Below, one piece after another: positions 16,061 to 36,691 of a DNA stretch of 61,408 nucleotides (position 1 is the first letter of the stretch; the number at the start of each line of letters is the position of its first letter). Source of the stretch: a virus (lineage: Duplodnaviria; Caudoviricetes); IMG/VR virus record IMGVR_UViG_3300029258_001409, positions 1-61,408 of that record, one strand, 5' to 3'. A model generated the notes under the pieces. The model saw only the letters and a list, made by a program, of their open reading frames with translations, did not search any database and was not told the origin of the DNA. Both the position numbers and the translations under genes were made by a program.

Positions 16061-16078
16061 ACAGGAGTGATCGGACTG

Positions 16079-18978: not shown

Positions 18979-19441
18979 TGACGAGATTCGGTCGATCCAA
19001 CGGGAATTGGAGGTCGAGCGTAAGGCATGGGTCCTGAAGGAGGAGCGGGCGCGGCTCGAATACCTGACGGGACTCGCACAGAAGGGAATGAACATCTCCG
19101 ACAATGTGATGGCGGAGGTCATTCCCGCAATCCGCAGGGGAGACATGGACCCGTCGAAGTTCCTGGCGTGGCTCGTGTCCATCTCTACGGAAGCACGGCT
19201 GGAACAGAAGGGCAAAGACGGTGATGGGATGGGCGCGGGAGGACCCGAGGGGGGATCGGGGACTGCCAATGCAGAATTCCTGATGGCGCTGGTCAGAGAG
19301 GCGCACAATGACCCCGAGAACGCGAAGGGCCTCCTCCAGGCAGCCCTTGGAGTGGGCGAAAGTCTGGCAGCCAATCACCCAGACATTGCCGAGCGGCTGG
19401 GCCGAACGCATCCTGGCCGAGACGGCGAGGCTCCTGGGTAA
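18668..19441 (+). CDS. Putative terminase small subunit
   Basis: Directly upstream of TerL; basic N-terminus; HTH-like FRAIRETL...LKTLERW. Confidence 0.55.
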   Translation: MTVKAKKKAKKTSTRSRGKDRKKRKVNPKTTASRKPAAVKRKDVSRRAKRVASPWPQEAILRFQQLRAHGGAESSFRAIRETLGAEFGKKPALKTLERWTAKFDDEIRSIQRELEVERKAWVLKEERARLEYLTGLAQKGMNISDNVMAEVIPAIRRGDMDPSKFLAWLVSISTEARLEQKGKDGDGMGAGGPEGGSGTANAEFLMALVREAHNDPENAKGLLQAALGVGESLAANHPDIAERLGRTHPGRDGEAPG

Positions 19442-21104: not shown

Positions 21105-23933
21105 ATGGAGTACGACTTCAAGAAAGCAATCTACGACAGCTCCTACGCTAGCGAAATGGCAGCGCAGCGAGAGTTCGCATTGGCCCGGCGCGTGGCCGAG
21201 GCGCGGGCCGAGGTCGCTCGTGCGGTCTCCACATCTGCCTCGGGAACGGACTGGATGCCTCCCGACCAGGCGGACCTGATGAAGGCGATCAGCTCAGTAC
21301 GGAATGAATCCAGGATCGCCTCGATCATGGGAACACTGATCGACCCCCGCGCCGTGTCTCACGACCATAGCGGCGCCCGCAAGAAGCCGACCCTCATGGA
21401 CTTCAATATCCTCCGGCGCCTGTCCTACGCGTGCGAACCCATTCGAGTTGCCATCGAATACCGGAAGACTCAGATCCGCATGGCAAAGTGGCGGGTCTGC
21501 CTGGCTGACGAGGATGAGGAGGCCACCGACCAGCAGGAAGCCCAGATGAAAGAAATCGAGCGGCTTCTGAAGCGGAAAAACAGGAACAAGGACTCTCTCT
21601 CTCGCACCCTGGAGAAAGCGACGGAAGACCTGCTGGCGCTCGATGCGGGATGTGTCCAGGTGGTGCCCTCCAGGGCGGGCAAGTATGGCGAGATGGTCGC
21701 GATGGACGGTGCAACCATCCGACCGAAGGTGACGAAGAAAGGCATTCTCGATCCGAAGACTCCCTACATCCAGTGGATCGAGAATCAGATCACGGGGAAG
21801 TTCCGGGCCCTGGGGCTCCCGGGAATGACGCAGGGGACCCTCGATAAACCAGCCATGATCTACATGATGCAAAACCCCGTCACGAACATCTTCATGAACG
21901 GCTACGGGGTATCTCCCATCGAGATGTTGATTACGGCAGTCACCGCCCTGGTCCACGGAAGCCGGTACAACGCGGATTACTTCTACGGGCCCAAGGTGCC
22001 CGAAGGGCTGCTGTATCTCGGGAGTGCGGCTACACAGAAGGACGTGACGTACTTCCGGTACTTCTGGGAGCACGAGCTTTCCCAGGGGTGGGCCATTCCG
22101 GTCGTCGGCGGCGGCTACCGCCCGGATCACACACACGCGCCGACTCCTCCACAGTTCATCCCGTTCCATCGCAGCCCGAAAGAGATGCAGTTCCATGAGT
22201 ACATCCAGTGGCTCACGCGGCTTGTGTGCGCCGCCTTCCAGATTCCGGTAGAGGAGATCGGCCTGGCGCAGCGGAGTTACGGGCCCGGCCAGAGCGGCCC
22301 GATGTTCGAGGCCAACAAGGAACCCACCCTGGACACCAGCCGGGATTGGGGACTGAAGCCTCTCCTACAGCTCATCGCGTATGAAATCACAGAGGTCGTC
22401 CAGCATTTCTGGGGAGACGAGTATCGGTTCGACTTCGTGTTGCCGCATGTGAAGGACAACGCCAAGGAAGCCACCCGAGTTGAGGTCCTGACGAAGGCGG
22501 GTCTATTCCACGAGGATGCAAGGCAGCTTTTCCTCGAAAACCAGAAGCGGGAAATTGCGGGGCTCGATCCGCTATCGGAGGACCAGTGGAAGCAGATCCA
22601 GGAAGCCAGAGAGAAGGCACAGAAGGAAGCGCAGGAACAGCAGATTGCCATGCAGCAGCAGATGGCAGGCCCAGGGGCAACCCCCGGCGCGAATGGTGAG
22701 GGAGGGGAGGGCAAGGAAGGGCCGTCGGGAGTCCCCCGGGTGGCAGGTGCATCGGGAGTTGACCGTCCCGATACGACGCCGCAACGCCCCTCTCGGCGGC
22801 CCGCTACATCTACCGAGGACGAGGAGAAGAAGAAGCGCGAGCGGGAGAAGAAGCGATCCGCCATCGTAAAGCCAAGGCCGATCGTGGCGAAGGCCCTTGG
22901 CCTTCCTGGAGGCGGACTGATTCACGATCTGTCCCGAGATGACTTCTTCGATGACCAGGAGACCGAGGACCTGGCGAGGGAGTGGGAGTCTGAGATCCGA
23001 CGGATTCTCATGAACATGGTCGAGGACCTGGGGGATCTCCTGGGTGTGGGCCGGAGCATCGACCTGGGCCCGCTTGCGAAGGCCCTCGATCCACCCACAG
23101 GGGGGATGCTGGCCGGAGAACTGCCCTGGGACGAAGTAGAGAAGATCATGGACCGGCACCTGAACGGGATCTGGATGACGGTCCAGGACAAGGCTTACGT
23201 CGACGCGGTCACAGCCGGGGCCATCCGGGAGCCATCGGCGATTTACACGCCGCTCCTGGCGCCGGTCTCCCTGCCGAAATCGTTCAACTTCCCGACCAGG
23301 GCCTACATGGTGGGTCAGAAGATCGCCGCCACGGTGCTCAGGGGGCAGGGGTTGTTTTCGGGAGGCGCCCGGACCCTCGTGCGACCCGAGGAGATCGACT
23401 GGTTGAGGCAGCACACCTTCTGGCTCATCAAAGGACAGACCCAGAAGGTGAAAAACCAGATCCAGCGGGTGATGATGGAGGAGCGGCACAAGGGAACTCA
23501 CCCGTTCCAGATCAAGACCAAGATGACCGACATGATCGGCGACTTCATGACGGACTATCGCCGGATCACTCGCACGGAGACCAGCCGGTCGCAAACCCAG
23601 GCATTCTACAAGGAACTTCTGGCGGCTGGAGAGGAAGAATGTACGTTTCTGCCTCACGCTGGCGCGTGTCGGCATTGCCAGAGGCTGATCGAAGGTCGGG
23701 TGTTCCGAATCAAAGACATCATGCACGTGACGAACTTCAACAAGCGGGTGGATGAATGGGAGCCGTGTTGTCCGCTCCATCCGAATTGCAAACATAGACC
23801 TAGCCCGGTTGTGTCCGGTCGATTGTCCCTGACCGAGCGGGAGCCGGGGAAGGAGCTCAAAGAGGACTACAATGTCGCGGTGAGGGAGTTGGAGGAGGCC
23901 CTGGCGGCGTCCGGGGCGAAGGTTCCATTCTAA
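21105..23933 (+). CDS. Portal protein fused to a C-terminal MuF-like head morphogenesis domain
   Basis: Portal motifs DGATIRP, YGVSPIE, FQIPVEEIG, GLKPLL; MuF RITRTETSR...ACRHC...PLHPNC. Confidence 0.85.
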   Translation: MEYDFKKAIYDSSYASEMAAQREFALARRVAEARAEVARAVSTSASGTDWMPPDQADLMKAISSVRNESRIASIMGTLIDPRAVSHDHSGARKKPTLMDFNILRRLSYACEPIRVAIEYRKTQIRMAKWRVCLADEDEEATDQQEAQMKEIERLLKRKNRNKDSLSRTLEKATEDLLALDAGCVQVVPSRAGKYGEMVAMDGATIRPKVTKKGILDPKTPYIQWIENQITGKFRALGLPGMTQGTLDKPAMIYMMQNPVTNIFMNGYGVSPIEMLITAVTALVHGSRYNADYFYGPKVPEGLLYLGSAATQKDVTYFRYFWEHELSQGWAIPVVGGGYRPDHTHAPTPPQFIPFHRSPKEMQFHEYIQWLTRLVCAAFQIPVEEIGLAQRSYGPGQSGPMFEANKEPTLDTSRDWGLKPLLQLIAYEITEVVQHFWGDEYRFDFVLPHVKDNAKEATRVEVLTKAGLFHEDARQLFLENQKREIAGLDPLSEDQWKQIQEAREKAQKEAQEQQIAMQQQMAGPGATPGANGEGGEGKEGPSGVPRVAGASGVDRPDTTPQRPSRRPATSTEDEEKKKREREKKRSAIVKPRPIVAKALGLPGGGLIHDLSRDDFFDDQETEDLAREWESEIRRILMNMVEDLGDLLGVGRSIDLGPLAKALDPPTGGMLAGELPWDEVEKIMDRHLNGIWMTVQDKAYVDAVTAGAIREPSAIYTPLLAPVSLPKSFNFPTRAYMVGQKIAATVLRGQGLFSGGARTLVRPEEIDWLRQHTFWLIKGQTQKVKNQIQRVMMEERHKGTHPFQIKTKMTDMIGDFMTDYRRITRTETSRSQTQAFYKELLAAGEEECTFLPHAGACRHCQRLIEGRVFRIKDIMHVTNFNKRVDEWEPCCPLHPNCKHRPSPVVSGRLSLTEREPGKELKEDYNVAVRELEEALAASGAKVPF

Positions 23934-24128: not shown

Positions 24129-24758
24129 TTGCGGTTATGTCTGTTATGCCTGGTGGCACTGCTCTACCTGATTGTTGCTTCTGCCGTTGGTCGTCGGCTG
24201 AGATCCATGAGTGCATGGCTTCGGGCGGTGGAGAAGGGGGAGACCATGGAACGGAGCGAGGCGGAAAGAGAAGCAGGCGCCCTGGGAAGTGACCTGGGGG
24301 CGGAGGATCTGAATGAAATCCTCGAAAAGGCAAGGCAGTACCTGGTCGAGAATGAGGGCAAGGTCCTGGCGGTTGTGCCGATGGGCATCATCCCGGCTCA
24401 GGGGAGTGCTGAGTTCTTACGTTTCCAGAAGATACGGCCCGTGTGGGCGGCGAGGCTCCCTGTCCGTGTTGCCATCGAAACCGATCGTGGATTGGTCATT
24501 GGGGAGAAAGGGGACTTCCTCGTTGCCCCCGAAGACTTCTCCAAGGCGTGGCCGGTTCCAGCCGACGAGTTCGAGGAAACCCACGTTCCCTCGTCGTATC
24601 CGGGAGATCTTGCGTCAGGGATGAGGGACTGGCTGGGGGCGTTCCAGAAGACCGAGGCGGTCAATGAGCGGGGCGACAAACTGATTTCGGGCGCCATGGT
24701 TCACCACCTGGAGGCGTTCCTGGAGCAGGCCGTCGGCGTTCTCGATGGGAAGGGGTAG
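24129..24758 (+). CDS. Hypothetical protein, PGDYG-like domain (start uncertain)
   Basis: IETDRG...GEKGDFLV...WPVPADEFEETH. Confidence 0.5.
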   Translation: MRLCLLCLVALLYLIVASAVGRRLRSMSAWLRAVEKGETMERSEAEREAGALGSDLGAEDLNEILEKARQYLVENEGKVLAVVPMGIIPAQGSAEFLRFQKIRPVWAARLPVRVAIETDRGLVIGEKGDFLVAPEDFSKAWPVPADEFEETHVPSSYPGDLASGMRDWLGAFQKTEAVNERGDKLISGAMVHHLEAFLEQAVGVLDGKG

Positions 24759-24762
24759 ACCA

Positions 24763-25038
24763 ATGATCCGGGTGAAGGCTCCTCCCGGGAGGGTCCCCAG
24801 GCGTTGGTTCGTGAGAAAGGCCGTGACCACCGAGGGGGAGGGACGGTCGAGGGCCACGCACCCCCTCCTGGGAGAGAGCCTTTCATCCCGAGTAGTGAAG
24901 TTGACGCCCAGGGCCTCGTGTCCGGGCGGAAAGATCCGATCGAAGGGCAAGGGCCGTGGCCTCGGGACCGGGAAGGGCCGGGGACCGCTACGGAAGAAGA
25001 AACGGGTTCGAAATGAGTCCACGTTGGGTGCCCAATGA
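24763..25038 (+). CDS. Small basic Gly/Lys/Arg-rich protein
   Basis: MIRVKA...CPGGKIRSKGKGRGLGTGKGRGP. Confidence 0.55.
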   Translation: MIRVKAPPGRVPRRWFVRKAVTTEGEGRSRATHPLLGESLSSRVVKLTPRASCPGGKIRSKGKGRGLGTGKGRGPLRKKKRVRNESTLGAQ

Positions 25039-25105: not shown

Positions 25106-28100
25106 ATGGGAAACGATGCGGAATTCGAACCGGGAATGGTCATGACAGTGATCGTGAAGGCAGTGCAGCGGAATCTCCCTCCTGGAGGGCAGTGGAAGAC
25201 GATCCGGGGCTCCCGCGTGTTCATCAAGGACGGGCGGGTCGTTGCCGGTCCAGCGGCGCTCCGCGGCATGGAGATGCGCCAGCAGCCAGCGGTGGCGGCG
25301 TCCGGGGCTGAAGAAGGAACGCTGCACCCCAAGTTCCCCATGGAGAAGATCCAGGCGGACCCGACGCAGGCCCGGAAGCACTTCGATGACGAGTCCCTGA
25401 GAGAGCTGGCCGAGTCGATCAAAGAGCATGGCCTGGTGCAGCCCGTCACTGTCCGCCCGATGGGCGATGACAAGTTCCAGATCGTCGCTGGAGAGCGCCG
25501 GTTCCGGGCCCACCAGCTCCTCGGGGCAAAGCACATCCGGGCACTGGTGGAGCCCATGGGGCAGGAGCGGGCCCGATCGGTTCAGCTCATCGAGAATCTA
25601 CAGCGGAAAGATCTGAATCCGATGGAGGAAGCCCACGGGTATGCCGATGCCATGGCCGAGAATCAATGGGACATCGAGCACCTGGCGAAGATGGTGAAGA
25701 AGTCCCCGGCGACTATCGAGGGAAAACTGTCCCTACGGAATCTCCTCCCCGAGTTCCAGGGCCTGGTCCAGAAGGGCCAGCTTTCGGAGACCCACGGGCG
25801 GCAGGTGGCGAAGCTGAAGCCGGACTGGCAGCGGAAGGCATTCCGGCAGATCGTGGATCGAGATCTGACCACCACCCAGACGAAAAAGGTGGTGGAAGGT
25901 CTTCTGGCATCCCAGCAGGCCGAGGAAGCCACCCAGGGGATGGGCCTGTTCAGCGCCGAGGTTATGGAGAAACTGGACACCATGACCACGAGGGAGCAGC
26001 GGGTCTTCGCAGACCGCCTCCAGCGATTCTTTGCCTCTGCGGAGCGGTTTCTGTCCGGTGTCCAGGATAAGCGCACCCAGGGACTCACCGGAGCGTTCCT
26101 GAAGGGCGATCTGGAGCGGAAGCGGGACATGATCCGGGCGATCCGCAAAGAGCTTCGGAGGGTCGAGGGCGAATTGGAAGCCCACATGGCCCGAGAGAAA
26201 GAGGGCGGCACGGCCAGGGCGAAGACCGCCGTGAATGTGGTCAGCAAGGTCAGGAAAGCCAAGAAGAAACGTCGCAGGCGCGTGACAAAGGCCCTCGCTC
26301 TCCCGGTAGTCGTGAAGGCGGCAGAGCGGAACCTGCCTTCTGGAGGGGAGTGGAAGACGATCCGGGGCTCCAGGGTCTACATCCATAATGGGCGGGTTGT
26401 GGCCGGGCCAGCGTCCCTTCATGGGCTTCAGATCGGGCAGGCGCCTAGATCGAAGGGTTCGCAGATGCCGTGGCCGAAGGAACCGACCTGGGCCAACGAT
26501 AAAACGGGCATTACGATGGTTCCGATCATCGGGGCGCAAGCGACCTTGGAGTCCTCCGGTGTGGGACTGATGGCTATGCGAGTCGAGCCGATCGCCGGGT
26601 GGAGGAAAACGCGCTATGTCGTTACGGACAACCCCACCCCGCCCCCTCAACTTGTTCTATTTCCTCAGTTGAGAGCGCGCGATACCTATTACCAGTATCA
26701 TGATGCGGCCACCTGGGCGGGTTTGAAGAAGAAGGCGCAGGCCCTTTGGGATGCCCAGGTCCAAGAGCATGAGAAGCGAACCGGAAAGGCTACCCGAGAG
26801 GGCAGTGAGTCCGAGATCTTCAGGGCCAGAATCGAGCGGGAGATTTCAGAAACGAAGGCCGGGAAGCGTCGGACGCCAATCGAGATGGGCCAGGTCCAGA
26901 GCGGTCAGGCCCTCAAGTTCCCGCCCATGGGTGGGGCGCCGCCGCCAGCAGTGAAGGTGCGGGGCCGCACGGGTGTCGCACGGCTCCAGGCCACGAAGGT
27001 GAAGCGCATTCCGGGATTCGTGAAGATCCGGGGGAGCTTCTGCAACACGCCGGAGCGGGCAGCCGGTATCTGTTCCGAGATTCGCCGGATCGACCGAGAG
27101 ACTGTCTGGACTGTCCACTGTGACGAGCGGGACCGGCCAACTTCGTGTGAATTGACATCCCTGGGGGCGATGGAGAAGACCACGTTCCACCCTCGGGACG
27201 TGCTGAAGATCTCCGCCCAGGTCGGGGCGAAGTCCGTCTGGCTGGTCCACAACCACCCGGCAGGAAACGTCACACCGTCTCTCGGCGATGTCCTCGCATT
27301 CAGGGCGTCACAACTCGCCGGAGAGGCCGTTGGGATCAAGGTGTCCGACCTGGTGGTCATCGGGAGCGGTGGACGGGCCACGAGCACGGCAAGGTTTGTC
27401 GAAACCTGCAAAGCGAATGGCCTGAGTCCTGACAGTGACGCCTCCTGGGAGGAGAACCACGGGCGCTTCCTGGAGATTGGTCAGCAGGTGTCCTTCAAGG
27501 TATCGGAGCAGAAGAAGGCTGAGCCGGTTGTTCCGCAGGTCGGCGGGACACTTTGGAGGGGGAAACTCCCCGAGGGAATGTCCGAGACCGTAGCTACCGA
27601 CCAGGAGGCCGCGCGCCTGGTGGGCCATGCGAGCAACCCGAACAAGTTCTCCGTCGTGGCGATCCACGGGAACCTGGACGGAGCGGTCAACTGCGTCGAG
27701 GTCTATGCGGCCAAGGGGCGGGAGCCGGGGCACATTCAGCGGGCGATGCAGGATGCCATTGACGGGATTCCCCAGACATCGGTTCGAACATCGAGTTCGC
27801 ATGTCTTCATCGGCTTTGGGTTCCCCGAGGGTGGGCCCGGAGGATCATTCCTCCGGGATGCTCAGGGAAAGCCCACGGCAGCCGGAGAAGTCATCATCGG
27901 GTCCGGGCCCGAGATGCTGAAGGGTGTCGGCCAGAAGCTCAACAGCGCGTTCATTCGAGTGGCCGATGTGGTGAGCGTCGAGGGCGATCGCTGGGCGGCA
28001 AGAACCACGCTGGGCAGGCAGAACGCCTTCCAGCGGTATCCATGGGATGTGCCGGACCCGCACCCGAGAAATGAGGAGTTTACCCAGGAGCAGTATGCGT

Positions 28101-31100
28101 TCGTGGGGGAGCCGCCATTCCACGAGCAGCGGGGCAAGCTACGGTCCCTGGCGAAATCCGTGGTGGTGAAGGCTGGCTGGGATGAATCGAAGCACCCGAG
28201 GGGGAGCACTGGCCGGTTCATCCGTGGGTTCGACCGGATGATTCGAGATCTGAAGGACAAGCGGGCTACATCGCTCCGCCATGTGCTTGCCGGGGCCAAA
28301 GACAGTACCGTCGTGCGATTCACGAAGCCACCGACGGTCGGCGTAGAAACGGCACAGGGGAAGAATCTCCTCTACAGAGAGGCGATCGTCCACCCGAGTG
28401 CGAAGTTCCCGGGCCGGTGGCAGATCACCTGGTTCGATACATACACACCCCAGGACGATGCCTCATGGGAGCCGAGCGGGGATGAGGAGTATCCAACGCG
28501 GAAAGCGGCGCTGAGAAGCATTGCCGGTGTCGGGACTCTTTCATTCGGCTATCCGGGGGAGTGGAAGGTGGCGCCCTTTGCTCGATCCATCATCGTCAGA
28601 TCAGCCTGGGATGAATCGAAGCACCCGCGAGTTCCAAAAGGGCAATCGGCTGGAGGTCAGTTCGGGATGTTCGGCGGCGCGGTGTCGTCGAAGGGCAAAA
28701 AGATCGTCCGGGTCCTGAGTGTGGTGGACACGCGTCAGTACGAAGAGCTGGGAGACAAGTTCCGGGCAATCCCTGGTTCTGGCCAGGAGAGCACCTGTTC
28801 CAGATGTGGGCGGACTCACGAGATCCATGCTGAGGTCGAGCTGGAGGATGGCAGCAGGGCGGTCGTGGGAACCGGCTGCATGAAGAAATCGGAGATGGCC
28901 GTCGCCTCGAAGGTGAAAAGCCTCACGAACACGGTGAAGACGATCGCCCGGAACCGCGCCAAGCTCGAGGCCCTGAAGGCAGAGAAGGCGCGGTGGGATG
29001 CTGCCTACGAAAAGATCGAGAAGAAACCTTTGCCGAAGATGACCGAGGCGACGAAGCCGATGCCCTACACGAAGCCCGAGCAGGGCCGGAACATGGTCGA
29101 ATTCAGTATGGGCCGCGGGGAAGGCCGGGCGACGACATTCTACGAAGTCTTGAATTCCAGGCACTCGGAGGACCCCGAGTACATCGAGAGTCGGTTACGT
29201 CGCTCCCGGAAAGACGCGATTGAGCGGCTTCCCGATGAATGGAGGAGGAAGCAAGTGCGGCTGCTGCTTGGGGAGAGCATGTGGAAGCCAAGGCCGGGGA
29301 CACTTGCCATCGAGGACCTGGAGAAGCGAATTGCCAAGCTGCAGAAGAAGGTAGATGAGGCAACGGCGCCGGTGGTTGTGAAGGCCGCCTGGGACGAATC
29401 CCGCCACCTAAGAGTTCCCAGAGGACAGGCGGCGGGCGGCCAGTTCATGGGCGGGGGAGCGGGAGCGATCTCCGAGAAGATCGTCCAGGTGATCGACACC
29501 GGGAAGACGCCGGACTACACAGACCTGAGCGGGGCTGGCGTCGTGGTCGAGGGCGAGATCGCCGCCACGCACATCACCGACGATCCCAGCGGGATCATCG
29601 AGATCCTGAAACAGGGGGGAAGGTTAGACCAGGGCGAAAAGGTGTGGCGAGAGCTGGGAGAGGGCCTGTATGCGAGTTCTGCCCCGCAGCTCTGGGTGGG
29701 CCGGGCGCCCGCGAAGTGGGAATTCCTTCAGGACCTGAAGCCCGAACAGAGGCGGGCGCTGGGGAATGCAATTCTGCAACACCCTCACATGACTGAACCG
29801 CACTACCTGACCGAATCCGAGCGGGATGTGGTCAAACGGGACGTGGGCTACGTGGTAGAGGGGAAGATGCACCCCGACATCCTGTCCATGTTCGCCGACC
29901 AGCCCTACAACATCGAGATATGGAGGCCGGAGTTCCTGAAGCCCCTGGGGATCGAGCCTTCGAACCGGCAACCCCTGGAGGTCCCCGTGAGGTTTCAGGG
30001 CAAGTTCGCCGAGCTCAGCGGATACCCGACAGAGGAAGAGCTGGCCCGGATGAAGGCTGCGGGATTCGCCGGGGCATTTCTACGCTCTGGATGGTCGCAC
30101 ATGCCGCAGATCGTGGTTTGGGACTCCTCGGCAGTTCGGAAGTTCGGAGAGTATGAACGCCCGTCGAAGGTCGTTGTGAAGGCTCTCCAGGGGCTCCCTC
30201 CTGGAGGGGAGTGGAAGACGATCCGGGGCTCCCGGGTCTACATCCACAACGGACGCATCGTGGCGGGCCCGGCAGCTCTCCAGGGCTTCGAGATGGGCCA
30301 GGCGAAGCAGACGGGGATCGCCCAGGGGGAGATTGATTTCTCGAAGCCAGCCGAAGGCGGGGACTCCTCACAGAAGCGCACCAGGACGCGAGCGAAGCCC
30401 GCCAAGGCAAAAGCACCGGCAGTACGACGTAGGAGTCGCCCGAAACACCTGGGAGGCTCTGGCATCAACGACGTGGGAGAGAAGATCGGCGGGGCCCGGA
30501 AGGACATCTGGTGGGACATAGCAGCCGGGCCCAGCAGCGGCGATCTCAAGGAATTGGAGAAGAACCCGGTTGAGGCACGCAGGCTCGTGTGCAAAGAGAA
30601 GATTCTTGGAAAGTTCACAGTGGATGCCCAGAGAGATCTGGGGAGGACCGGGGGAGCCGCTTACTTCTGGAAGAAGATCCACGGGGCCATCCTGGTGCGC
30701 CCATCCGATGACCCGATGCATCGGGCCCGGTACATGAGAGGCTGTCATCTGCTCCAGGAGGCTACCCAGAAGGCCAGAACCGTTGTGGACATGAAAGAAG
30801 CCATGTCGGGCCTGGTGGATCTCTGGAACAAGGACGAGGACGAGAGGGCGGCGCTCGGTAGCCTGGGCAAGAAATTCCGAACCCATGCCCTCGGGGGCGG
30901 ATACTCGAACACCCGGTGGAAGATCATGCGGGACGCCACGCACTATGAGGCGATGGAAAACGATCCCGACATGATCGCTCTCCTGGACCTGGTGAAGAAG
31001 CCGGAGGAGTTCCAGGCGCGGCTCCAGAAGAAGAATCCGATGCTGGCGGCCCAACTCAAGGCCCGCCCATCGCTCATGGGACAGGTACTGGCCCGCATCG

Positions 31101-34100
31101 ACCCCTGGGGGTGGGCTACGAAGGCAGATGGGGGCACTGGAGAGAGGAAGAAACGGAAGCGGGTCATCCGGCCCGTTCCCCAGGAGGCGCGCAGGAGCGG
31201 AAAGAAGCTGCATCAGTATCCCGTCCCCTCGCCCGAGGAATTGATCGAGCAGTACGGCCTCCGGGGAGCCGAGTTCGGCAATTGGGTGAACGATCGCCAT
31301 AGGCAATGGCATGTATGGCAGGCCCACATGGCATTCGGGGATCTCGCCCAGGTCCTCGGAATCGAACCGGCGCAGGTGAGCGGTCGGGGGAACCTGGGAA
31401 TCGGATTCGGGGCCCGAGGGACCGGATGGGCTGCGGCGCATTACGAACCGGCCAAGGTCGTAATGAACCTCACGAGAAACCGTGGCGGCGGATGCCTCGC
31501 ACATGAGTGGGGTCACTTCCTCGATAACTTCCTGGCCGGGGCGCGAGCGAAAAAGCCCTCCACCAGATGGATCAGTCACTTTGGCGACCGCGTGGCGCTC
31601 GGCAAGGAACGAACGATCGACAAGGATCTGGAAAAGGCGATCACAGGCGTGATGAAGGCAATCAAAGAGAAGCCCGTGGACACCAGATCCGAGAAGACGC
31701 AGTACACCGCCATCTCGAAGCGCGGAATTGAGCAGGCCGAGAAAGCAATGCCGCCACATCTGCGGGCCACCGACGAGAATTCCGCTCAGATCATGCGCGC
31801 CCTGAATCTGTTCCGGGAGTGGGTGGGCCCGACGCACAAGCCCCATGCTGTCATGGGCGGGAGGAAAAGGAAACCGACGATCGCCGAGGCCGTGAGGATG
31901 ATCTACACCACGCCCGGGCTCAACATTACCCGGAAGTCTCCGACAACGGTAGCCGCGGAAATGAAGCGGGCACTATTCAAGGGCCCCGAGGCTCTACCGA
32001 AGGCGAAGTTCACGAAGGACGACCATGCCGCGGTCGACGCGCTGGTCCATGCCCTCTCGCCCAAGAGCAAGCTCAGCAGCTACGCGCTGATTCGCTGGGC
32101 TCGGGACATGGACGATGCGTACAAGGCCGCTGACAATACCATGAAATGGGTGGAGTCCAGGAAGCAGATCTCCGAAAAACACACGCTGACCACCACATCT
32201 GACTTCCTGCGACGTTCCCGGAAGCTCTCGAAGTCAGGTGACTATTGGCAGCGTCCCCATGAGATGTTCGCCAGGGCATTCGAAGCCTACGTGCAAGACC
32301 GCCTTGGAGCCATGGGGGCTGAGAACACCTATCTCGTGTTCGGGACGCGCGAGGGGGACTACGATCCAGATATCCCGCATCCCTACCCGCTCGGAGAGGA
32401 GCGGAAGGCCATCAACGCCTCGATGGACAATCTCCTGAAGGTGCTGAGGAAGAAGAAGCGTCTGCTGAAGGCGCTGGTCGATACCGCCGCCTTCGCATTC
32501 TCCGGTCATCCGGTGGTCGTGAAGGCATTCATGCTGAAGCCGGGAGAGACATTCCCCGTCTGGAGGACGATCCGCGGCACGAAGGTCCAGATTGGCCCAG
32601 GTGGAGTCATCATGAAGGGCCCGGATGCTCTGCGGGGTACGAAGGTCACGGGCCTGGGGGTCTCGGAGAAACCGAAGATTGCTGGGGTGAAGGTCCGGGG
32701 AGGGCGATCATTCCAGGAGACACTGCGGGGCCCGGGAGAGGCCAAGTGGATCACTCTTGCGCCATCGACCTACACGATGGGAGAGGAGCGGCTGCATCGC
32801 GTCAAGGTGAAGGGTGAGTGGATTGTCTCCGGGCGATTCAAGGGGATGCGCGTGGAGGACATGGTTCGTCACGGGCGCCTGAGAGAATCGAAGCGGTACA
32901 TCTACGACCCCGAGACCGGCGCCGTGGAGAAGATGCAAGTCAGGGCTGCTGACGGGCGCATGTACTGGCGAGTCAAGGGGCAGGCGATGGCGATACGGAA
33001 AGGCAATCGCCTCCTGGTCATGCTTCCGGCCAGCATGACGAAGGAACGAGTGACACTGGAGAAGATGGGCTTCGGCAAGCGCAGCGGAAACCAGTTCTGG
33101 GTGACGCCGAAGGACTTCGACCAGGTGGCCGATGTGTTGGGCGGCTTGTCGCTCGACCACCATGCGGATCACTTCCTGAAATCCTTCGCTGACCAGGAGG
33201 CCAAGCGTGAGTCCTACCGCGAAGCCGAGAGCATGAAGGAACTCCAGGCGTTCAACATGGGCCAGGTTCCCGGCCTGCGCCCGAACGGAGATCCGAGGAC
33301 CGGCATCGGCAGAATCGACCACCTTCACGAGTACCAACTGAGGGGCATCCACTGGTTCTGCAATACAGGTTCCGGGATTATGGGCTGGGACATGGGCATG
33401 GGGAAAACGATTGGCTCGATCGCGGCGATGATGCGTCTTTCCGCAGACGGGAAATTGAAAGAGAACGGCAGAAATGGCCGCGTGCTTGTCATTGTGCCGC
33501 CCAACCTCAGAGATAACTTCGCCGAGGATGTGGGCAAGTACACCAGCGCGTCTGTATCGCTCGATGGCAAGGACCCGAGCGCCATGTTCCAGGTAACATC
33601 CTACGAGATGTTTACCCGACATCCCGAGCGGTTCAAGGGGCAGTGGGGCGCCCTCGTGATGGACGAGGCCCATTACATCAAGCGGGACTCGAAACGGACC
33701 CGCCAGATCCACGCGAGCCTCATGGATGTGCCCTTCAAGATGGCATTGACGGGGACGCCGATGACGGTCTCTCCGCTGGATCTCTACAACATCGTGGCGT
33801 TCGTTGCCCCGGAAGGACTCTACAGCCAGACGGAGTTCAAGCAGAAGTTCATGCTCATGGAGGGCGGTCGCTGCATTGGGATCAATCCTGAGCACCTGGA
33901 CGAGCTCCGCGGGTGGGCGAAGAAGTATTGCCTCTACCTGCGGGCGGAGGACTGGCTGAAGAAACTCCCGAAGGCCACTCCAGTCAATCAGTCTCATGTG
34001 AACATCGGAATGACGCCGGGCCAGGCACGGCTCTACGAGCGGTGGACGAAGGTGAACGAGCGTATCGAGGCGAAGATGTATGCCCGCCTCCAGGCCGAAA

Positions 34101-34924
34101 CCGGACAGAAGAATCCGACCATGACGGATGAAGACCGGGATCGGCTGAGGAAGATGGTATCTGACACGATCAGCGTGAAGGGGAAGCGCGTTCGAGTGCA
34201 GGGCGAGCGGGTATGGCAGACACTCAGGACGATCGAGAACACTCCGGGAGCGATAGATCCGAGACTGGCCGGTGAGAACCCCAAGCTGGACGCCATGATG
34301 GAGCTCATCCAACAGCATCAGGCGAAACCCAAGATGCGCTCCGGGGAACCAACCAAGCGGGGGAAGACGATCATCTTTGCGGGCTCAGTGGCCCTACAGA
34401 AGGCCATCATTGAGCGGCTGAAGAAAGAGCATGGCGAGCAGTCGATGTGCGGGGTGGTTCACGACGGGAATTTCGTTGGCGGGCGGAGGGTGTCATCGAA
34501 GGACACGGCAGCGGTGGTGGATCACTTCAACAACGATCCTGATGCTCAATTCGTGGTGCTCTCGACCAAGCGGGGCAAGGAAGGGTTGAATCTCCAGTCT
34601 GCCAGCCAGGTGATTCATGTCGATCAGCCATTCACCCATGCAGATCACCGGCAGGCCACGGCACGCGCCGTGAGACAGGGCAATCAATATGAGTCCGTTG
34701 ACGTTCACACCATCGTGATTCATCCACCGAAGCACTTGGGCGTGGAGTCGGTGGACCAGGGCACGACCAGGAGGAATATCGAGCGGGAGCGCATGGTCAA
34801 TCAGCTCCTCGGCGGCGAGGTTCCGGCTTCGGCTGGCATGAGTTCGTCGCAATACAGGAGGGTATACAGCAGTGACATTGAAAAAGCAAAACAGCAGGGG
34901 GTCAGGGTCCGCCCCGCCGCCTAG
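25106..34924 (+). CDS. 3272-aa polyvalent polyprotein: ParB, JAB/RadC, two unknown domains, ART-like, zincin/LPD1, SNF2 helicase
   Basis: AGERRFRA/IENLQRKDL; HNHPAG..SLGD; GEGLYAS; AHEWGH, EMFARAFE, YPLGEER; DMGMGKT, DEAH, LTGTP, EGLNLQ. Confidence 0.9.
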   Translation: MGNDAEFEPGMVMTVIVKAVQRNLPPGGQWKTIRGSRVFIKDGRVVAGPAALRGMEMRQQPAVAASGAEEGTLHPKFPMEKIQADPTQARKHFDDESLRELAESIKEHGLVQPVTVRPMGDDKFQIVAGERRFRAHQLLGAKHIRALVEPMGQERARSVQLIENLQRKDLNPMEEAHGYADAMAENQWDIEHLAKMVKKSPATIEGKLSLRNLLPEFQGLVQKGQLSETHGRQVAKLKPDWQRKAFRQIVDRDLTTTQTKKVVEGLLASQQAEEATQGMGLFSAEVMEKLDTMTTREQRVFADRLQRFFASAERFLSGVQDKRTQGLTGAFLKGDLERKRDMIRAIRKELRRVEGELEAHMAREKEGGTARAKTAVNVVSKVRKAKKKRRRRVTKALALPVVVKAAERNLPSGGEWKTIRGSRVYIHNGRVVAGPASLHGLQIGQAPRSKGSQMPWPKEPTWANDKTGITMVPIIGAQATLESSGVGLMAMRVEPIAGWRKTRYVVTDNPTPPPQLVLFPQLRARDTYYQYHDAATWAGLKKKAQALWDAQVQEHEKRTGKATREGSESEIFRARIEREISETKAGKRRTPIEMGQVQSGQALKFPPMGGAPPPAVKVRGRTGVARLQATKVKRIPGFVKIRGSFCNTPERAAGICSEIRRIDRETVWTVHCDERDRPTSCELTSLGAMEKTTFHPRDVLKISAQVGAKSVWLVHNHPAGNVTPSLGDVLAFRASQLAGEAVGIKVSDLVVIGSGGRATSTARFVETCKANGLSPDSDASWEENHGRFLEIGQQVSFKVSEQKKAEPVVPQVGGTLWRGKLPEGMSETVATDQEAARLVGHASNPNKFSVVAIHGNLDGAVNCVEVYAAKGREPGHIQRAMQDAIDGIPQTSVRTSSSHVFIGFGFPEGGPGGSFLRDAQGKPTAAGEVIIGSGPEMLKGVGQKLNSAFIRVADVVSVEGDRWAARTTLGRQNAFQRYPWDVPDPHPRNEEFTQEQYAFVGEPPFHEQRGKLRSLAKSVVVKAGWDESKHPRGSTGRFIRGFDRMIRDLKDKRATSLRHVLAGAKDSTVVRFTKPPTVGVETAQGKNLLYREAIVHPSAKFPGRWQITWFDTYTPQDDASWEPSGDEEYPTRKAALRSIAGVGTLSFGYPGEWKVAPFARSIIVRSAWDESKHPRVPKGQSAGGQFGMFGGAVSSKGKKIVRVLSVVDTRQYEELGDKFRAIPGSGQESTCSRCGRTHEIHAEVELEDGSRAVVGTGCMKKSEMAVASKVKSLTNTVKTIARNRAKLEALKAEKARWDAAYEKIEKKPLPKMTEATKPMPYTKPEQGRNMVEFSMGRGEGRATTFYEVLNSRHSEDPEYIESRLRRSRKDAIERLPDEWRRKQVRLLLGESMWKPRPGTLAIEDLEKRIAKLQKKVDEATAPVVVKAAWDESRHLRVPRGQAAGGQFMGGGAGAISEKIVQVIDTGKTPDYTDLSGAGVVVEGEIAATHITDDPSGIIEILKQGGRLDQGEKVWRELGEGLYASSAPQLWVGRAPAKWEFLQDLKPEQRRALGNAILQHPHMTEPHYLTESERDVVKRDVGYVVEGKMHPDILSMFADQPYNIEIWRPEFLKPLGIEPSNRQPLEVPVRFQGKFAELSGYPTEEELARMKAAGFAGAFLRSGWSHMPQIVVWDSSAVRKFGEYERPSKVVVKALQGLPPGGEWKTIRGSRVYIHNGRIVAGPAALQGFEMGQAKQTGIAQGEIDFSKPAEGGDSSQKRTRTRAKPAKAKAPAVRRRSRPKHLGGSGINDVGEKIGGARKDIWWDIAAGPSSGDLKELEKNPVEARRLVCKEKILGKFTVDAQRDLGRTGGAAYFWKKIHGAILVRPSDDPMHRARYMRGCHLLQEATQKARTVVDMKEAMSGLVDLWNKDEDERAALGSLGKKFRTHALGGGYSNTRWKIMRDATHYEAMENDPDMIALLDLVKKPEEFQARLQKKNPMLAAQLKARPSLMGQVLARIDPWGWATKADGGTGERKKRKRVIRPVPQEARRSGKKLHQYPVPSPEELIEQYGLRGAEFGNWVNDRHRQWHVWQAHMAFGDLAQVLGIEPAQVSGRGNLGIGFGARGTGWAAAHYEPAKVVMNLTRNRGGGCLAHEWGHFLDNFLAGARAKKPSTRWISHFGDRVALGKERTIDKDLEKAITGVMKAIKEKPVDTRSEKTQYTAISKRGIEQAEKAMPPHLRATDENSAQIMRALNLFREWVGPTHKPHAVMGGRKRKPTIAEAVRMIYTTPGLNITRKSPTTVAAEMKRALFKGPEALPKAKFTKDDHAAVDALVHALSPKSKLSSYALIRWARDMDDAYKAADNTMKWVESRKQISEKHTLTTTSDFLRRSRKLSKSGDYWQRPHEMFARAFEAYVQDRLGAMGAENTYLVFGTREGDYDPDIPHPYPLGEERKAINASMDNLLKVLRKKKRLLKALVDTAAFAFSGHPVVVKAFMLKPGETFPVWRTIRGTKVQIGPGGVIMKGPDALRGTKVTGLGVSEKPKIAGVKVRGGRSFQETLRGPGEAKWITLAPSTYTMGEERLHRVKVKGEWIVSGRFKGMRVEDMVRHGRLRESKRYIYDPETGAVEKMQVRAADGRMYWRVKGQAMAIRKGNRLLVMLPASMTKERVTLEKMGFGKRSGNQFWVTPKDFDQVADVLGGLSLDHHADHFLKSFADQEAKRESYREAESMKELQAFNMGQVPGLRPNGDPRTGIGRIDHLHEYQLRGIHWFCNTGSGIMGWDMGMGKTIGSIAAMMRLSADGKLKENGRNGRVLVIVPPNLRDNFAEDVGKYTSASVSLDGKDPSAMFQVTSYEMFTRHPERFKGQWGALVMDEAHYIKRDSKRTRQIHASLMDVPFKMALTGTPMTVSPLDLYNIVAFVAPEGLYSQTEFKQKFMLMEGGRCIGINPEHLDELRGWAKKYCLYLRAEDWLKKLPKATPVNQSHVNIGMTPGQARLYERWTKVNERIEAKMYARLQAETGQKNPTMTDEDRDRLRKMVSDTISVKGKRVRVQGERVWQTLRTIENTPGAIDPRLAGENPKLDAMMELIQQHQAKPKMRSGEPTKRGKTIIFAGSVALQKAIIERLKKEHGEQSMCGVVHDGNFVGGRRVSSKDTAAVVDHFNNDPDAQFVVLSTKRGKEGLNLQSASQVIHVDQPFTHADHRQATARAVRQGNQYESVDVHTIVIHPPKHLGVESVDQGTTRRNIERERMVNQLLGGEVPASAGMSSSQYRRVYSSDIEKAKQQGVRVRPAA
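25148..32640 (+). repeat. Dispersed type-A tag repeats (VVKA..W[KR]TIRG..GP.AL) at about 25148, 26306, 30170, 32513
   Basis: Visible in protein and DNA; 26341-26385 vs 30202-30246 differ at 1 of 45 nt. Confidence 0.9.
28160..29446 (+). repeat. Dispersed type-B tag repeats (VV[KR][AS].WDES.H.R...G.F) at about 28160, 28589, 29372
   Basis: ctgggatgaatcgaagcacccg identical at 28177 and 28606. Confidence 0.9.
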
Positions 34925-34931
34925 CGAGGAC

Positions 34932-35225
34932 ATGGTTCCCGTAACTACACGAGCGCAGGAAGCGGGAGACGTGCAGCTCTTGTCTGAGTCCGGTCCCTTC
35001 CCGCTCGACGCGTATCGAAATCTTCAGAATCGGAACCAGGCCCTGGGGTGCCTGATCTGGTTTTCGGAGGAGTACAACCGCCGCAATCTGCGTGTGGAGG
35101 ACGGGCTGACAGACGAGCAGATTCGGGGGCTTTGGAGGGATCTGTACGAGGCTTGTGTTCGATTCAAGGTGCCCCTGGACGGGGAGCACATGGCGAGAGC
35201 GAAAAAGCTGGGGGTCCTACGATGA
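34932..35225 (+). CDS. Hypothetical head-region protein
   Basis: GAGGA RBS; ATGA overlap with next gene. Confidence 0.6.
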   Translation: MVPVTTRAQEAGDVQLLSESGPFPLDAYRNLQNRNQALGCLIWFSEEYNRRNLRVEDGLTDEQIRGLWRDLYEACVRFKVPLDGEHMARAKKLGVLR

Positions 35226-36352
35226 TTCGCATTCAGGCATCACCGACGACAACCAAGTCTGTCCATCTTCGAAAGGGCGAGACCTATCCCGTATGGAGAA
35301 CTGTCCGTGGTGCGAAGGTCCGCATTCGGGATGCCTCTGGGACGGTCTCCGCAGGACCCGCGGCCCTGAAGGGAAGGAAGATCGGCGGGGCAAAGGTATC
35401 GAGGGCGGAGAGGGTGCCCCGAGCAGAGCGCCGGTCGGCCATGCGATCGCATCTGGCATCCCAGGAGAGCGCAGCGAAGTGGAATCGGACCCTTCGCCAG
35501 AAGGGCATCACGAGCACCACACACAGCAGCGAGACCTATGTTCCCCCGCGACCTGGTCGGGCCGGGATGATTATTCCTCCTGGTCGGAGATCCACACCCA
35601 GACACACACCGGCCCTCCCCGGCGTGAAGCGCAAGGGACTTCTCGGATCGACGCGCACGAAGCGTGCTCCCTCCCCCGGCTCCGGGAAGGCAAAGGCGAT
35701 GGAGATGGAGCAGGTGGAGCGCAGAAAGGCGACATCGAAAGAGCCTGAAGAGCGTGAGGCCACCCTTCGGGCCGAACAGGAGGGAAAGGCCGCTAAGGCG
35801 AAACGGAAGACCATGCGACGGGCCCAGGAGCGGTATGCGGATCGCCTGACGAAGAAACATGGCCCGGATGTCGAGGCGGCGAAGCGGGAAGCCACCGCTG
35901 AGGCATCCACCAGGATTCGACCGAAGCCGCTCTCCCCGAGTGAGAAGGCCGCCGTGAAGAAACAGCCTCCATGGCCCAGCCCGAGAGAGTCGATTGCCTC
36001 TGGGGCTCGGAACATCATCGGGAAGCGATCCGTGAAGCGTAAGACCGCCCTTGGGGGCGGAGGTCGCGTGGCGTCGGTGCCGAAACCCGGATCGAAGAAA
36101 GCCATCGAAATGGGCCAAGTGAGAAGTGCCGGCCGCGGTGGGTTTTCGAATCCAGAGGCCCAGGCGGCCAGGATCGCGAATACGAATGCGGCACAGTCGA
36201 TCGAGAGCCATATCAGTTTCGCCGATCGAATGGCCCAGACGGGGGCGACGCCCAACGAGAGGATCGGCTGGCAGCAGGTAGCGAATGCCCTGCGGACGAT
36301 GAAGCGCCGCGGGGAATATACGGTCGGCGTGGGGGTCCACGCGAGGGGATAG
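35222..36352 (+). CDS. Very basic protein carrying a type-A tag (candidate internal head protein)
   Basis: TTKS...GETYPVWRTVRGAKVRI...AGPAALKG; K/R/A/P-rich. Confidence 0.7.
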   Translation: MIRIQASPTTTKSVHLRKGETYPVWRTVRGAKVRIRDASGTVSAGPAALKGRKIGGAKVSRAERVPRAERRSAMRSHLASQESAAKWNRTLRQKGITSTTHSSETYVPPRPGRAGMIIPPGRRSTPRHTPALPGVKRKGLLGSTRTKRAPSPGSGKAKAMEMEQVERRKATSKEPEEREATLRAEQEGKAAKAKRKTMRRAQERYADRLTKKHGPDVEAAKREATAEASTRIRPKPLSPSEKAAVKKQPPWPSPRESIASGARNIIGKRSVKRKTALGGGGRVASVPKPGSKKAIEMGQVRSAGRGGFSNPEAQAARIANTNAAQSIESHISFADRMAQTGATPNERIGWQQVANALRTMKRRGEYTVGVGVHARG

Positions 36353-36356
36353 GGCC

Positions 36357-36680
36357 ATGCTCGTTATCAAGGGCTGCACGGGTCATCTCTCGAAGCATGA
36401 CCCGGAGCATTGGGAAAAGGCCAAGAGAGCGGTCCAGAAGCAGTATGGGATCAGCTCCGGGGATCGCTTCTGGTCAATCGTCAATACGGTCTATCAGAAC
36501 ATGAGTCACTACATCCCGAAGGGCGAGAAGGGGAAGTACCGCTGGAAGCCCACCGGAGGGAAGACCTCCACCGGGATGCCGAAAGCGACGAAGGTGCGGA
36601 TCAAGAAGGCTCCCATCCGCAAACTGAAATCGAGGGTGAAGATCAAACCGGCGCCGGAGAAAGAGCGCCGGGCTGCGTAG
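36357..36680 (+). CDS. Small basic head-region protein, possibly ChaB-like
   Basis: WEKAKRAVQKQY...FWSIVNTVY helical hairpin; Lys-rich tail. Confidence 0.55.
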   Translation: MLVIKGCTGHLSKHDPEHWEKAKRAVQKQYGISSGDRFWSIVNTVYQNMSHYIPKGEKGKYRWKPTGGKTSTGMPKATKVRIKKAPIRKLKSRVKIKPAPEKERRAA

Positions 36681-36691
36681 GAGGGATCTCG

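Follow-up and report, generated by a model that had tools for sequence, protein, structure and literature searches.

Cleavage-like junctions and two short conserved tags suggest that a giant polyvalent protein of an uncultured phage is a head-cargo polyprotein

Phages are known or predicted to inject proteins along with their DNA. For the giant polyvalent proteins, to our knowledge, nobody has shown the loading route, or whether and where the chain is cut. This question is raised by IMG/VR virus record IMGVR_UViG_3300029258_001409 (Duplodnaviria; Caudoviricetes), a whole uncultured virus with direct terminal repeats that is rated complete; the window analyzed here is the entire record of 61,408 bp. 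Its head module contains an uninterrupted open reading frame (ORF) for a protein of 3272 amino acids (aa), in which the same short motif recurs seven times, each time followed by one of two conserved peptides, here called tag A and tag B, and then by a payload cassette. How might such a chain be loaded into a phage head, and would it stay in one piece? The best explanation, to which we give slightly more credence than doubt, is that the protein is a head-cargo polyprotein, cut by the phage's own prohead protease into tagged modules that are co-ejected with the DNA.

Where would the chain be cut? The strict motif [VIL][VIL][VIL][KR][AS] occurs in the 3272-aa protein at exactly seven sites, at aa 15, 401, 1019, 1162, 1423, 1689 and 2470, reading VVVKA five times and VIVKA and IIVRS once each. 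A preliminary description, made from the sequence alone, had picked out seven boundaries, and the regular expression returns the same seven, with the same letters and far above chance (a slash marks the predicted cut):

25148-25162, +: boundary 1, VIVK/A, at the end of an 18-aa N-terminal leader
26306-26320, +: boundary 2, VVVK/A, with VTK/A 9 aa upstream
28160-28174, +: boundary 3, VVVK/A, with LAK/S upstream
28589-28603, +: boundary 4, IIVR/S, with FAR/S upstream
29372-29386, +: boundary 5, VVVK/A
30170-30184, +: boundary 6, VVVK/A
32513-32527, +: boundary 7, VVVK/A, with LLK/A 18 aa upstream

The second sites that had been noted ahead of several boundaries (VTKA, LAKS, FARS and LLKA) were likewise all found, 4-18 aa upstream of four of them. 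In 5000 shuffles of the protein, the strict motif occurred 0.45 times on average and never more than 4 times, compared with the 7 observed. Translation of the window in six frames gives 16 matches, the other nine being all out of frame or antisense, and there is none in the 74 other ORFs of the gene set. No boundary site falls within a recognized domain of the 3272-aa protein. Cutting after each Lys or Arg would produce the 18-aa leader and cassettes of 386, 618, 143, 261, 266, 781 and 799 aa, with predicted masses of 43.5, 67.1, 16.0, 29.3, 29.5, 87.1 and 89.7 kDa, respectively; six of the seven are basic (pI 9.6-10.2).

Above Pfam cutoffs, the protein matches ParB_N, HTH_ParB, RadC, LPD1, SNF2-rel_dom and Helicase_C. 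Cassette 6 combines LPD1 with a HEWGH (HExxH) motif and an NCBIfam CLCA_X match (E 1.4e-33) that lies below its cutoff. The ParB, JAB/RadC, LPD1-HExxH and SNF2 payloads of the preliminary description are thus upheld, and its "Zn-binding" and "ART-like" labels are unconfirmed: cassette 4 has a CxxC...C pattern and a weak CpXC match (E 0.0064), and cassette 5 reaches an Atlas score of 0.81 (below the 0.9 mark) to a cluster with 22% ART-PolyVal members, a lead only, with no match to an ART family in Pfam or NCBIfam. Cassette 3 matches no family in Pfam or NCBIfam. With its many unrelated domains and its position in the portal-terminase module, the protein looks by sequence like a phage polyvalent protein, and its earlier assignment to that class agrees with the typical domains, the head-module location and the complete phage genome.

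What follows the site is equally regular. Every site is succeeded by a tag, tag A in four cases and tag B in three, and the alignment bears out the earlier statement that one copy stands after each boundary. The tag A core W[KR]TIRG is found at aa 30, 416, 1703 and 2486, and WDES of tag B at aa 1025, 1168 and 1429; the Trp of the tag lies 12 to 15 residues beyond the cut in tag A and 2 residues beyond it in tag B. The individual copies (E values are for the tag A profile) are:

25148-25288, +: tag A copy 1, site plus LPPGGQWKTIRGSRVFIKDGRVVAGPAAL, before the ParB cassette (E 1.7e-29)
26306-26449, +: tag A copy 2, before the RadC/JAB cassette (E 5.1e-29)
28178-28219, +: tag B copy 1, WDESKHPRGSTGRF, before a 143-aa cassette of no recognized family
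28607-28663, +: tag B copy 2, WDESKHPRVPKGQSAGGQF, before the CxxC-containing cassette
29390-29446, +: tag B copy 3, WDESRHLRVPRGQAAGGQF, before the 266-aa cassette
30170-30310, +: tag A copy 3, before the zincin (HEWGH) plus LPD1 cassette (E 3.8e-30)
32513-32656, +: tag A copy 4, variant PGETFPVWRTIRGTKVQI, before the SNF2 helicase cassette (E 3.9e-23)

Tag A is about 30 residues long, with the consensus GG.W.TI.G..VYI.DG....GP..L.G., and tag B is a linear motif, WDE.KHPR...G.F. A fifth tag A, absent from the preliminary description, heads the next gene, which encodes a 376-aa protein: an 11-aa leader beginning the protein as MIRIQASPTTTK/S is followed by the tag at 35255-35395 (tag A profile, E 8.7e-21). 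Compared with one another, the three close tag A copies agree at 24-27 residues, and 8-12 of these are encoded by different codons. Recent duplication of the DNA alone was rejected as the source of the tags in view of these synonymous differences; because identical residues differ in codons, it is the peptide that appears to be under selection, not DNA that has merely been copied.

Modeled by AlphaFold2 from a 19-row alignment, tag A forms a three-stranded antiparallel sheet (strands 14-18, 21-26 and 29-32 of the 48-residue query), with pLDDT values of 79-85 in the core block and an unstructured VVVKA stretch. A Foldseek comparison of this model with the PDB returned nothing below E 3.1, and no DNA-binding or host-binding fold was recognized. 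Tag A (e.g. 30170-30313, LPPGGEWKTIRGSRVYIHNGRIVAGP) may resemble a WW domain in its pattern LPxG.W ... Y.HN ... P, though without the second Trp: the corresponding Foldseek match ranks 41 (E 7.4), and Pfam scans of the tag-bearing protein show no WW domain. Neither tag matches an entry in Pfam or NCBIfam, and Pfam DUF7211, a 25-position phage peptide family, has no match at E≤10 in the genome or in five tag-B records.

Which enzyme would cut at these sites? The + strand carries nearly all of the coding capacity, with 75 ORFs of a crude gene set covering 96% of the sequence, and the head module reads, in order, terminase, portal-MuF, two small ORFs, the 3272-aa ORF, a basic gene, protease/scaffold and capsid:

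19308-21095: terminase large subunit
21105-23933, +: portal-MuF fusion, 942 aa, with a MuF-like minor head domain
24129-24758: small ORF between portal-MuF and the 3272-aa ORF
24745-25038, +: very basic 97-aa ORF, beginning MGRGRPMIRVKA/PPG, directly upstream of the polyprotein
25106-34924, +: large polyvalent protein P0001, 3272 aa, uninterrupted ORF
35222-36352, +: very basic 376-aa protein P0132 (pI 11.7, 22% Lys plus Arg), without a family match
36692-38254, +: predicted prohead protease with an acidic scaffold-like C-terminal part, P0276, 520 aa
38327-39772, +: major capsid protein, SU10_MCP / phrog_752, about 29% identical to the SPO1 type

The 3272-aa ORF had been placed between portal-MuF and the prohead protease; it does lie in the same head module, with the two small ORFs and the 376-aa gene intervening. 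The SPO1-type phages to whose capsid proteins this identity refers are Bacillus phages, and no cultured phage is near. A segment of the 97-aa ORF resembles aa 19-71 of the capsid protein, K/A site included (BLASTP E 4e-8), so that this ORF may encode another small head-internal protein or be a partial copy of the 5' end of the capsid gene. The 376-aa basic protein is likely another head cargo or internal protein, and may be a DNA-associated one. Just upstream of the packaging genes lies a gene for a 750-aa protein with a calcineurin-like phosphoesterase domain (16067-18319, +).

To follow the boundary motif beyond the polyprotein, we counted a looser form, [VILA][VILAT]K[AS], over the whole proteome. 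Four head-module ORFs, together 5262 aa, have 20 copies, and the remaining 71 ORFs, with 14,330 aa, have 3 (Fisher p 2.7e-9); the 23 copies are distributed as 3 in portal-MuF, 11 in the polyprotein, 1 in the 434-aa frame of the basic protein, 5 in the protease/scaffold frame and 3 elsewhere. Because the motif was derived from the polyprotein, a fair test must omit it, and the enrichment persists: 9 in 1990 aa versus 3 in 14,330 aa (odds ratio 21.7, p 9e-7). In portal-MuF, a 63-residue linker is bracketed by VAK/ALGLPGGG (after K596) and LAK/ALDPPTGG (after K659), and both sites show the K/A..(L)P.GG that is also found at the tag A junctions. It is probably here that the protease sets MuF free from the portal. 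In the protease/scaffold, copies follow aa 30, 311, 379, 398 and 462, and the four C-terminal ones surround an acidic stretch rich in Gly, Asp and Glu, as expected of a digested scaffold. The capsid protein has DTLK/ALTTVG at aa 36-40, a variant of the site. The boundary motif is thus common to the usual substrates of prohead proteases (portal-MuF linker, protease/scaffold and capsid N-terminus), a distribution that fits cutting by a prohead protease.

The product of 36692-38254 is accepted here as that protease, a distant homologue of the SPO1/SP-10 type as judged by sequence, although the Pfam S78 profile is not matched. Its start at 36692 has AGGAGG eight bases upstream and agrees with an identical 520-aa database protein, leaving about 340 nt (36353-36691) after the basic-protein gene; a TTG-started frame of 614 aa probably over-extends the gene by 94 codons. 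The protein matches PHROG_1028 head maturation protease (E 4.4e-4) and Peptidase_S78 clusters (Atlas feature scores 0.94-0.95). By BLASTP it aligns with the SP-10 procapsid protease (E 1e-5, 27% over 199 columns), pairing WDH with YDH and GMSIEG with GFSIEG, and with SPO1 gp3.2 (E 5e-5), where only the Ser-motif region is covered (GMSIEG with GFSVEG). From these alignments we infer that the WDH and GMSIEG motifs hold the catalytic His and Ser. The gene order portal, protease, scaffold, capsid protein of SP-10 and SPO1 is the same here. A word search for homologues of the protease/scaffold returned only the protein itself. Modeled by AlphaFold2 without an alignment, the protease domain had a mean pLDDT of 36.7 and was unusable, and a predicted complex of the domain (P0276 aa 25-235) with a junction peptide (P0001 aa 1675-1735) scored 0.00 against a mark of 0.34, a result that speaks neither way.

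Could the polyprotein instead be cut by its own peptidase? The zincin-like metallopeptidase (MPTase) of cassette 6, with its HExxH motif, sub-cutoff CLCA_X match and LPD1 domain, might act on the same boundaries before packaging, in the head or after injection, and autoprocessing by MPTase domains has been proposed for polyvalent proteins generally (PMC5512222). We regard this as very improbable, as the motif is shared by classical prohead-protease substrates (portal-MuF linker, protease/scaffold and capsid N-terminus), and cutting after Lys matches the HK97-type serine protease, which cuts at K103/S104 (PMC10275583).

Are the tags peculiar to this phage? A profile built from the five tag A copies, run against 1.84 billion representative proteins, found 180 protein clusters at E≤1e-3 and 24 at E≤1e-10. 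Details were taken from the best 150 of the 180, which after removal of two from this phage (P0123 and P0132) leaves 148 proteins. In this set, 129 of the 148 carry a W-anchored tag A, making 176 tags altogether. The tag lies within the first 70 aa in 37 of the 41 proteins of at most 400 aa, in some right after the initiator Met, and 34 of the 88 longer proteins have at least two copies. What precedes it varies by lineage: hydrophobic-x-K[AS] is found within 25 residues upstream of 38 of the 176 tags (e.g. IDLxK/S), and other groups have LNLS...E or acidic contexts. A Pfam scan of 49 of the 148 proteins, taken in E-value order, each shorter than 2000 aa and together 49,000 residues, showed a range of payloads behind tag A: topoisomerase IB in 8, ART-PolyVal in 3, 2H phosphoesterase in 3, portal (4 matches to three models), ADPrib_exo_Tox in 2, LPD1 in 2, and single cases of SNF2, NUDIX, Zeta toxin, Mu F and others. 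The other 47 of the 49, in which no LPD1 match was seen, have the same site-plus-tag layout, a further point against cutting by the zincin of cassette 6. Type IB topoisomerase is the commonest recognized payload (P0124, P0128 and six others), which suggests that a topoisomerase is part of the head cargo in many uncultured phages.

In ten independent contigs with tag A, found by degenerate DNA patterns, a portal, large terminase or MuF-type gene adjoins the tagged gene or is part of the same protein at 8 loci. The preliminary description had expected a profile scan to find the tag in head operons, behind K/A and before variable payloads. Context and payloads came out largely as expected; the upstream K[AS] appeared before only the minority of tags counted above, and one locus lies outside a head module. 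None of 15 tags in five other proteins with domain coordinates falls inside a Pfam domain.

Tag B is far more frequent. Searched over viral contigs as a degenerate DNA pattern, WDE.KHPR...G.F hit at least 104 stretches; among the 80 loci listed there are 83 core motifs in 79 ORFs, 15 of which have at least two copies, and Lys or Arg lies within six residues upstream of 56 of the 83. Ten tag-B ORFs were scanned against Pfam. They include the fusions portal-tag B-PBECR1 (L033) and Mu_F-tag B (L039), and the domains downstream of the tag are PBECR1, LPD3 with DUF2213, and ART-PolyVal (twice), with three ORFs showing no family. A 1351-aa protein (L049:964-5016, +) has tag B six times, at intervals of about 150-270 aa and in five cases with [ST]K/[SA] eight residues upstream and a spacer ending in DAE, and a PI3_PI4_kinase-like match far downstream of the tag; judged by its sequence, it is an independent example of the site-plus-tag grammar.

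Some tag-B proteins deserve separate mention. The PBECR1 nuclease occurs in the portal-tag B-PBECR1 protein (L033:1789-3708, +) and also in a small protein, where tag B stands at residue 25 (L048:2817-3518, -); in the former, tag B sits at the junction of a portal fusion of a kind drawn in PMC5512222. A complete 197-kb virus record encodes a 1600-aa tag-B protein (L032:439-5238, -) whose ART-PolyVal and 2H domains flank a weak intein-splicing-domain match (E 8e-6, below cutoff).

Seven of the 150 tag-A proteins listed have both tags. This phage's own protein is among the seven, and in three of the others (P0149, P0254 and P0256) K/S sites stand ahead of both tags. A tblastn search of both tags against 50,697 cultured-phage records gave chance-level matches only (E 0.5 and 0.9), short queries being insensitive in such a search. 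Together, these data support the view that both tags are portable modules, placed at module starts in many phage proteins and mostly beside or fused to portal, MuF or terminase.

These observations bear on whether the chain is cut at all. It might remain a single 365-kDa chain like the N4 virion RNA polymerase (vRNAP), either packaged or active in the cell, with VVVKA plus tag serving as a repeated inter-domain linker or as a small module that binds, for instance, nucleic acid or a host protein, repeated for avidity. The N4 vRNAP, ArdC and TraC1 are transferred uncleaved (PMC5512222), and tag A is modeled as an autonomous mini beta-sheet. We nevertheless find an uncut chain distinctly unlikely: one upstream 5-mer is common to two unrelated tags, the same tags follow different upstream motifs in other lineages, they are N-terminal (sometimes directly after Met) in small single-module proteins, and the motif is enriched in normally processed proteins.

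How, then, would a head-cargo polyprotein work? What the sequences show is the anatomy of the chain, the motif statistics, where the tags occur and the head-module setting; that the chain is cut, by which enzyme, that it is packaged and injected, and what the tags do is what we infer from these patterns. The polyvalent protein would be made late, alongside the head genes, and would enter the procapsid as a few copies, where the prohead serine protease would cut after Lys or Arg at hydrophobic-V-V-K/A, producing the 18-aa leader and seven products of about 16-90 kDa: the ParB-like, RadC/JAB, three unassigned, zincin plus LPD1, and SNF2 helicase modules. Further substrates of this protease would be the portal-MuF linker, where a cut would free MuF, the N-terminus of the capsid protein, the enzyme's own scaffold part, which would be digested, and the small basic proteins, the 376-aa one losing its leader. 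Each product would begin with tag A or tag B, retained on the mature fragment. The modules would exit together with the DNA, to act at an early stage in the host. By their domain types (ParB, RadC and SNF2 helicase, as in the P1 Dar proteins; PMC5512222 and PMC9024508), the payloads may have the anti-defense role first proposed for them.

What would the tags contribute? Since their place is after the cut, and since proteins requiring no cleavage have them at the N-terminus too, they would act as "cargo header" modules that need a place at or near a free N-terminus; cleavage would then give each module of the chain an N-terminus of its own. Most likely they would dock the modules to a conserved component of the head interior or keep them ejectable. 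Candidate partners could be an inner head component (an address), the portal/tail channel or DNA (an ejection aid), or a host factor. "Packaging tag", the name first given to them, is a guess: with the tags C-terminal to the cut, and with one tag sufficient to load the whole chain, the data do not require an address role. The chain might therefore be cut as proposed and the tags act at or after ejection, on the portal/tail channel, the DNA end or a conserved host factor, or serve as exosites that place the protease just upstream. Their predicted retention on the products, their conservation between lineages with differing cut-site motifs, their presence even on cargo covalently tied to portal or MuF, and the mostly basic cassettes would all suit such a role. 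Set against this, small proteins with the tag straight after Met need no protease, which argues against exosites, and the Foldseek comparison revealed no DNA-binding or host-binding fold in tag A. We consider this variant unlikely, yet a serious contender.

Several observations weigh against a prohead-cleaved, address-tagged cargo chain. A tag downstream of the cut reverses the arrangement in T4, and to load the whole polyprotein one tag would do. In some polypeptides, tag A comes after a portal or MuF domain, a place that should need no address. Portal and MuF fusions could be explained by the joining of neighboring genes and so do not settle the role of the tag: the cargo gene normally lies just downstream, and loss of a stop codon would fuse the two. 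One clear exception among the ten tag-A loci, a 216-aa protein with an N-terminal tag A (L015:8221-8868, +), lies among QueE-like, thymidylate synthase and UvsX-like genes, a nucleotide-metabolism region and not a head module, and a second locus (L010) has no recognized head gene nearby. Neither tag was found in any of 120 LPD1-type polyvalent proteins retrieved with the whole protein, and the tags are therefore not general to the polyvalent class. The candidate capsid site, T-L-K/A, falls outside the regular expression used, and the aligned capsid N-termini of SPO1 and SP-10 have DLEG and TQSG, not Lys, at that position; the position of the site is plausible, and its residue is not conserved. 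Finally, the matches that place the protease in its family are weak, though concordant: Pfam Peptidase_S78 (PF04586) has no match at E≤1 in the six-frame translation of the genome, a whole-Pfam scan of the protein found no protease family, and a phmmer search against the PDB sequences found nothing.

More broadly, and with rather more doubt than credence, we suggest that tags A and B are part of a limited set of portable cargo headers, so far uncatalogued, that follow lineage-specific prohead-protease sites and mark every unit loaded into the head and injected. If this is true, sequence alone could reveal which proteins a phage injects, and a site plus a tag could turn any protein into head cargo. 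Such a junction code would predict exact N-termini for virion mass spectrometry, would give a rule for finding injected effectors, and with them candidate anti-defense proteins, in metagenomic phages, and might be a handle for loading foreign proteins into capsids.

The preliminary description knew of no account of a site, tag and payload grammar, and literature searches found none. Neither the junction grammar nor either tag turned up in term searches of PMC5512222, PMC5576092 and PMC7824862; the supplementary alignments of PMC5512222 might show the tags. ESKHPR, EEKHPR, WVTING, WRTIRG and WVTIDG occur in no paper of the literature searched, and WRTING only as typing errors.

How does the arrangement compare with known systems? 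In phage T4, the gp21 prohead protease, which cuts after Glu, not Lys, removes the capsid targeting sequence of IPI-III and Alt, a signal that can be transferred to foreign proteins. That targeting sequence is cited in section 3.3 of PMC9024508, and the present case is similar in joining a short peptide and a prohead-protease site on head-packed, injected proteins. Whereas the T4 signal is N-terminal to the cut and removed, the conserved tags here are C-terminal to it at all seven junctions and in the next gene, and upstream of the cuts there are only unconserved leaders of 18 and 11 aa, so that a targeting sequence of the T4 type is not seen. T4 cargo also consists of single proteins, as opposed to a seven-module chain. 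DarB of P1 is closer in one respect: it is a giant head-packaged anti-restriction protein encoded near portal/protease genes, and it retains its N-terminal signal, the first 30 residues sufficing for encapsidation (PMC9024508). DarB has one signal on one uncut protein, compared with several tags in a chain with predicted cuts, and no consensus among the Dar proteins was found according to the same source.

The polyvalent proteins of Iyer et al. 2017 (PMC5512222) are alike in being giant multi-domain proteins, with 2 to 15 unrelated domains in a chain, whose genes lie beside those for portal and terminase, with ParB, RadC, zincin/LPD1 and SNF2 domains, and in their predicted packaging, injection and processing into domains. 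Processing is there assigned to embedded zincin-like peptidases or a C-terminal assemblin-like peptidase; here the boundaries consist of a prohead-protease-type site plus one of two conserved tags, and a term search of the text finds neither "linker" nor "HPR". The effectors tied to MuF or portal, namely the MuF toxins (PMC5576092) and the PBECR fusions (PMC5512222), are also related, and tags stand at MuF- or portal-effector junctions in other phages (L002, L019, L033 and L039). The present phage differs in having the cargo in a gene of its own and MuF joined to the portal. The terms "linker", "conserved motif" and "cleav" are absent from the MuF toxin paper by term search (PMC5576092).

Like the HK97 protease, the one proposed here would cut after Lys before a small residue, and, as in SPO1 and SP-10, its gene stands just before the scaffold/capsid genes; it differs in that the Pfam S78 model does not match it, in its fusion to a scaffold-like part, and in that its substrates would include a 3272-aa cargo chain. 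The prohead proteases of phiKZ and SPN3US follow a different cleavage rule. The ejection proteins of these phages are similar in that many host-entering proteins of the head interior are cut by the prohead protease; they are separate gene products of jumbo phages, and the abstracts mention no conserved tag after the cut. Polyvalent and internal head proteins processed by a prohead protease are thus already known, and what the present locus adds is a pair of widespread, uncatalogued tags that directly follow the predicted cuts.

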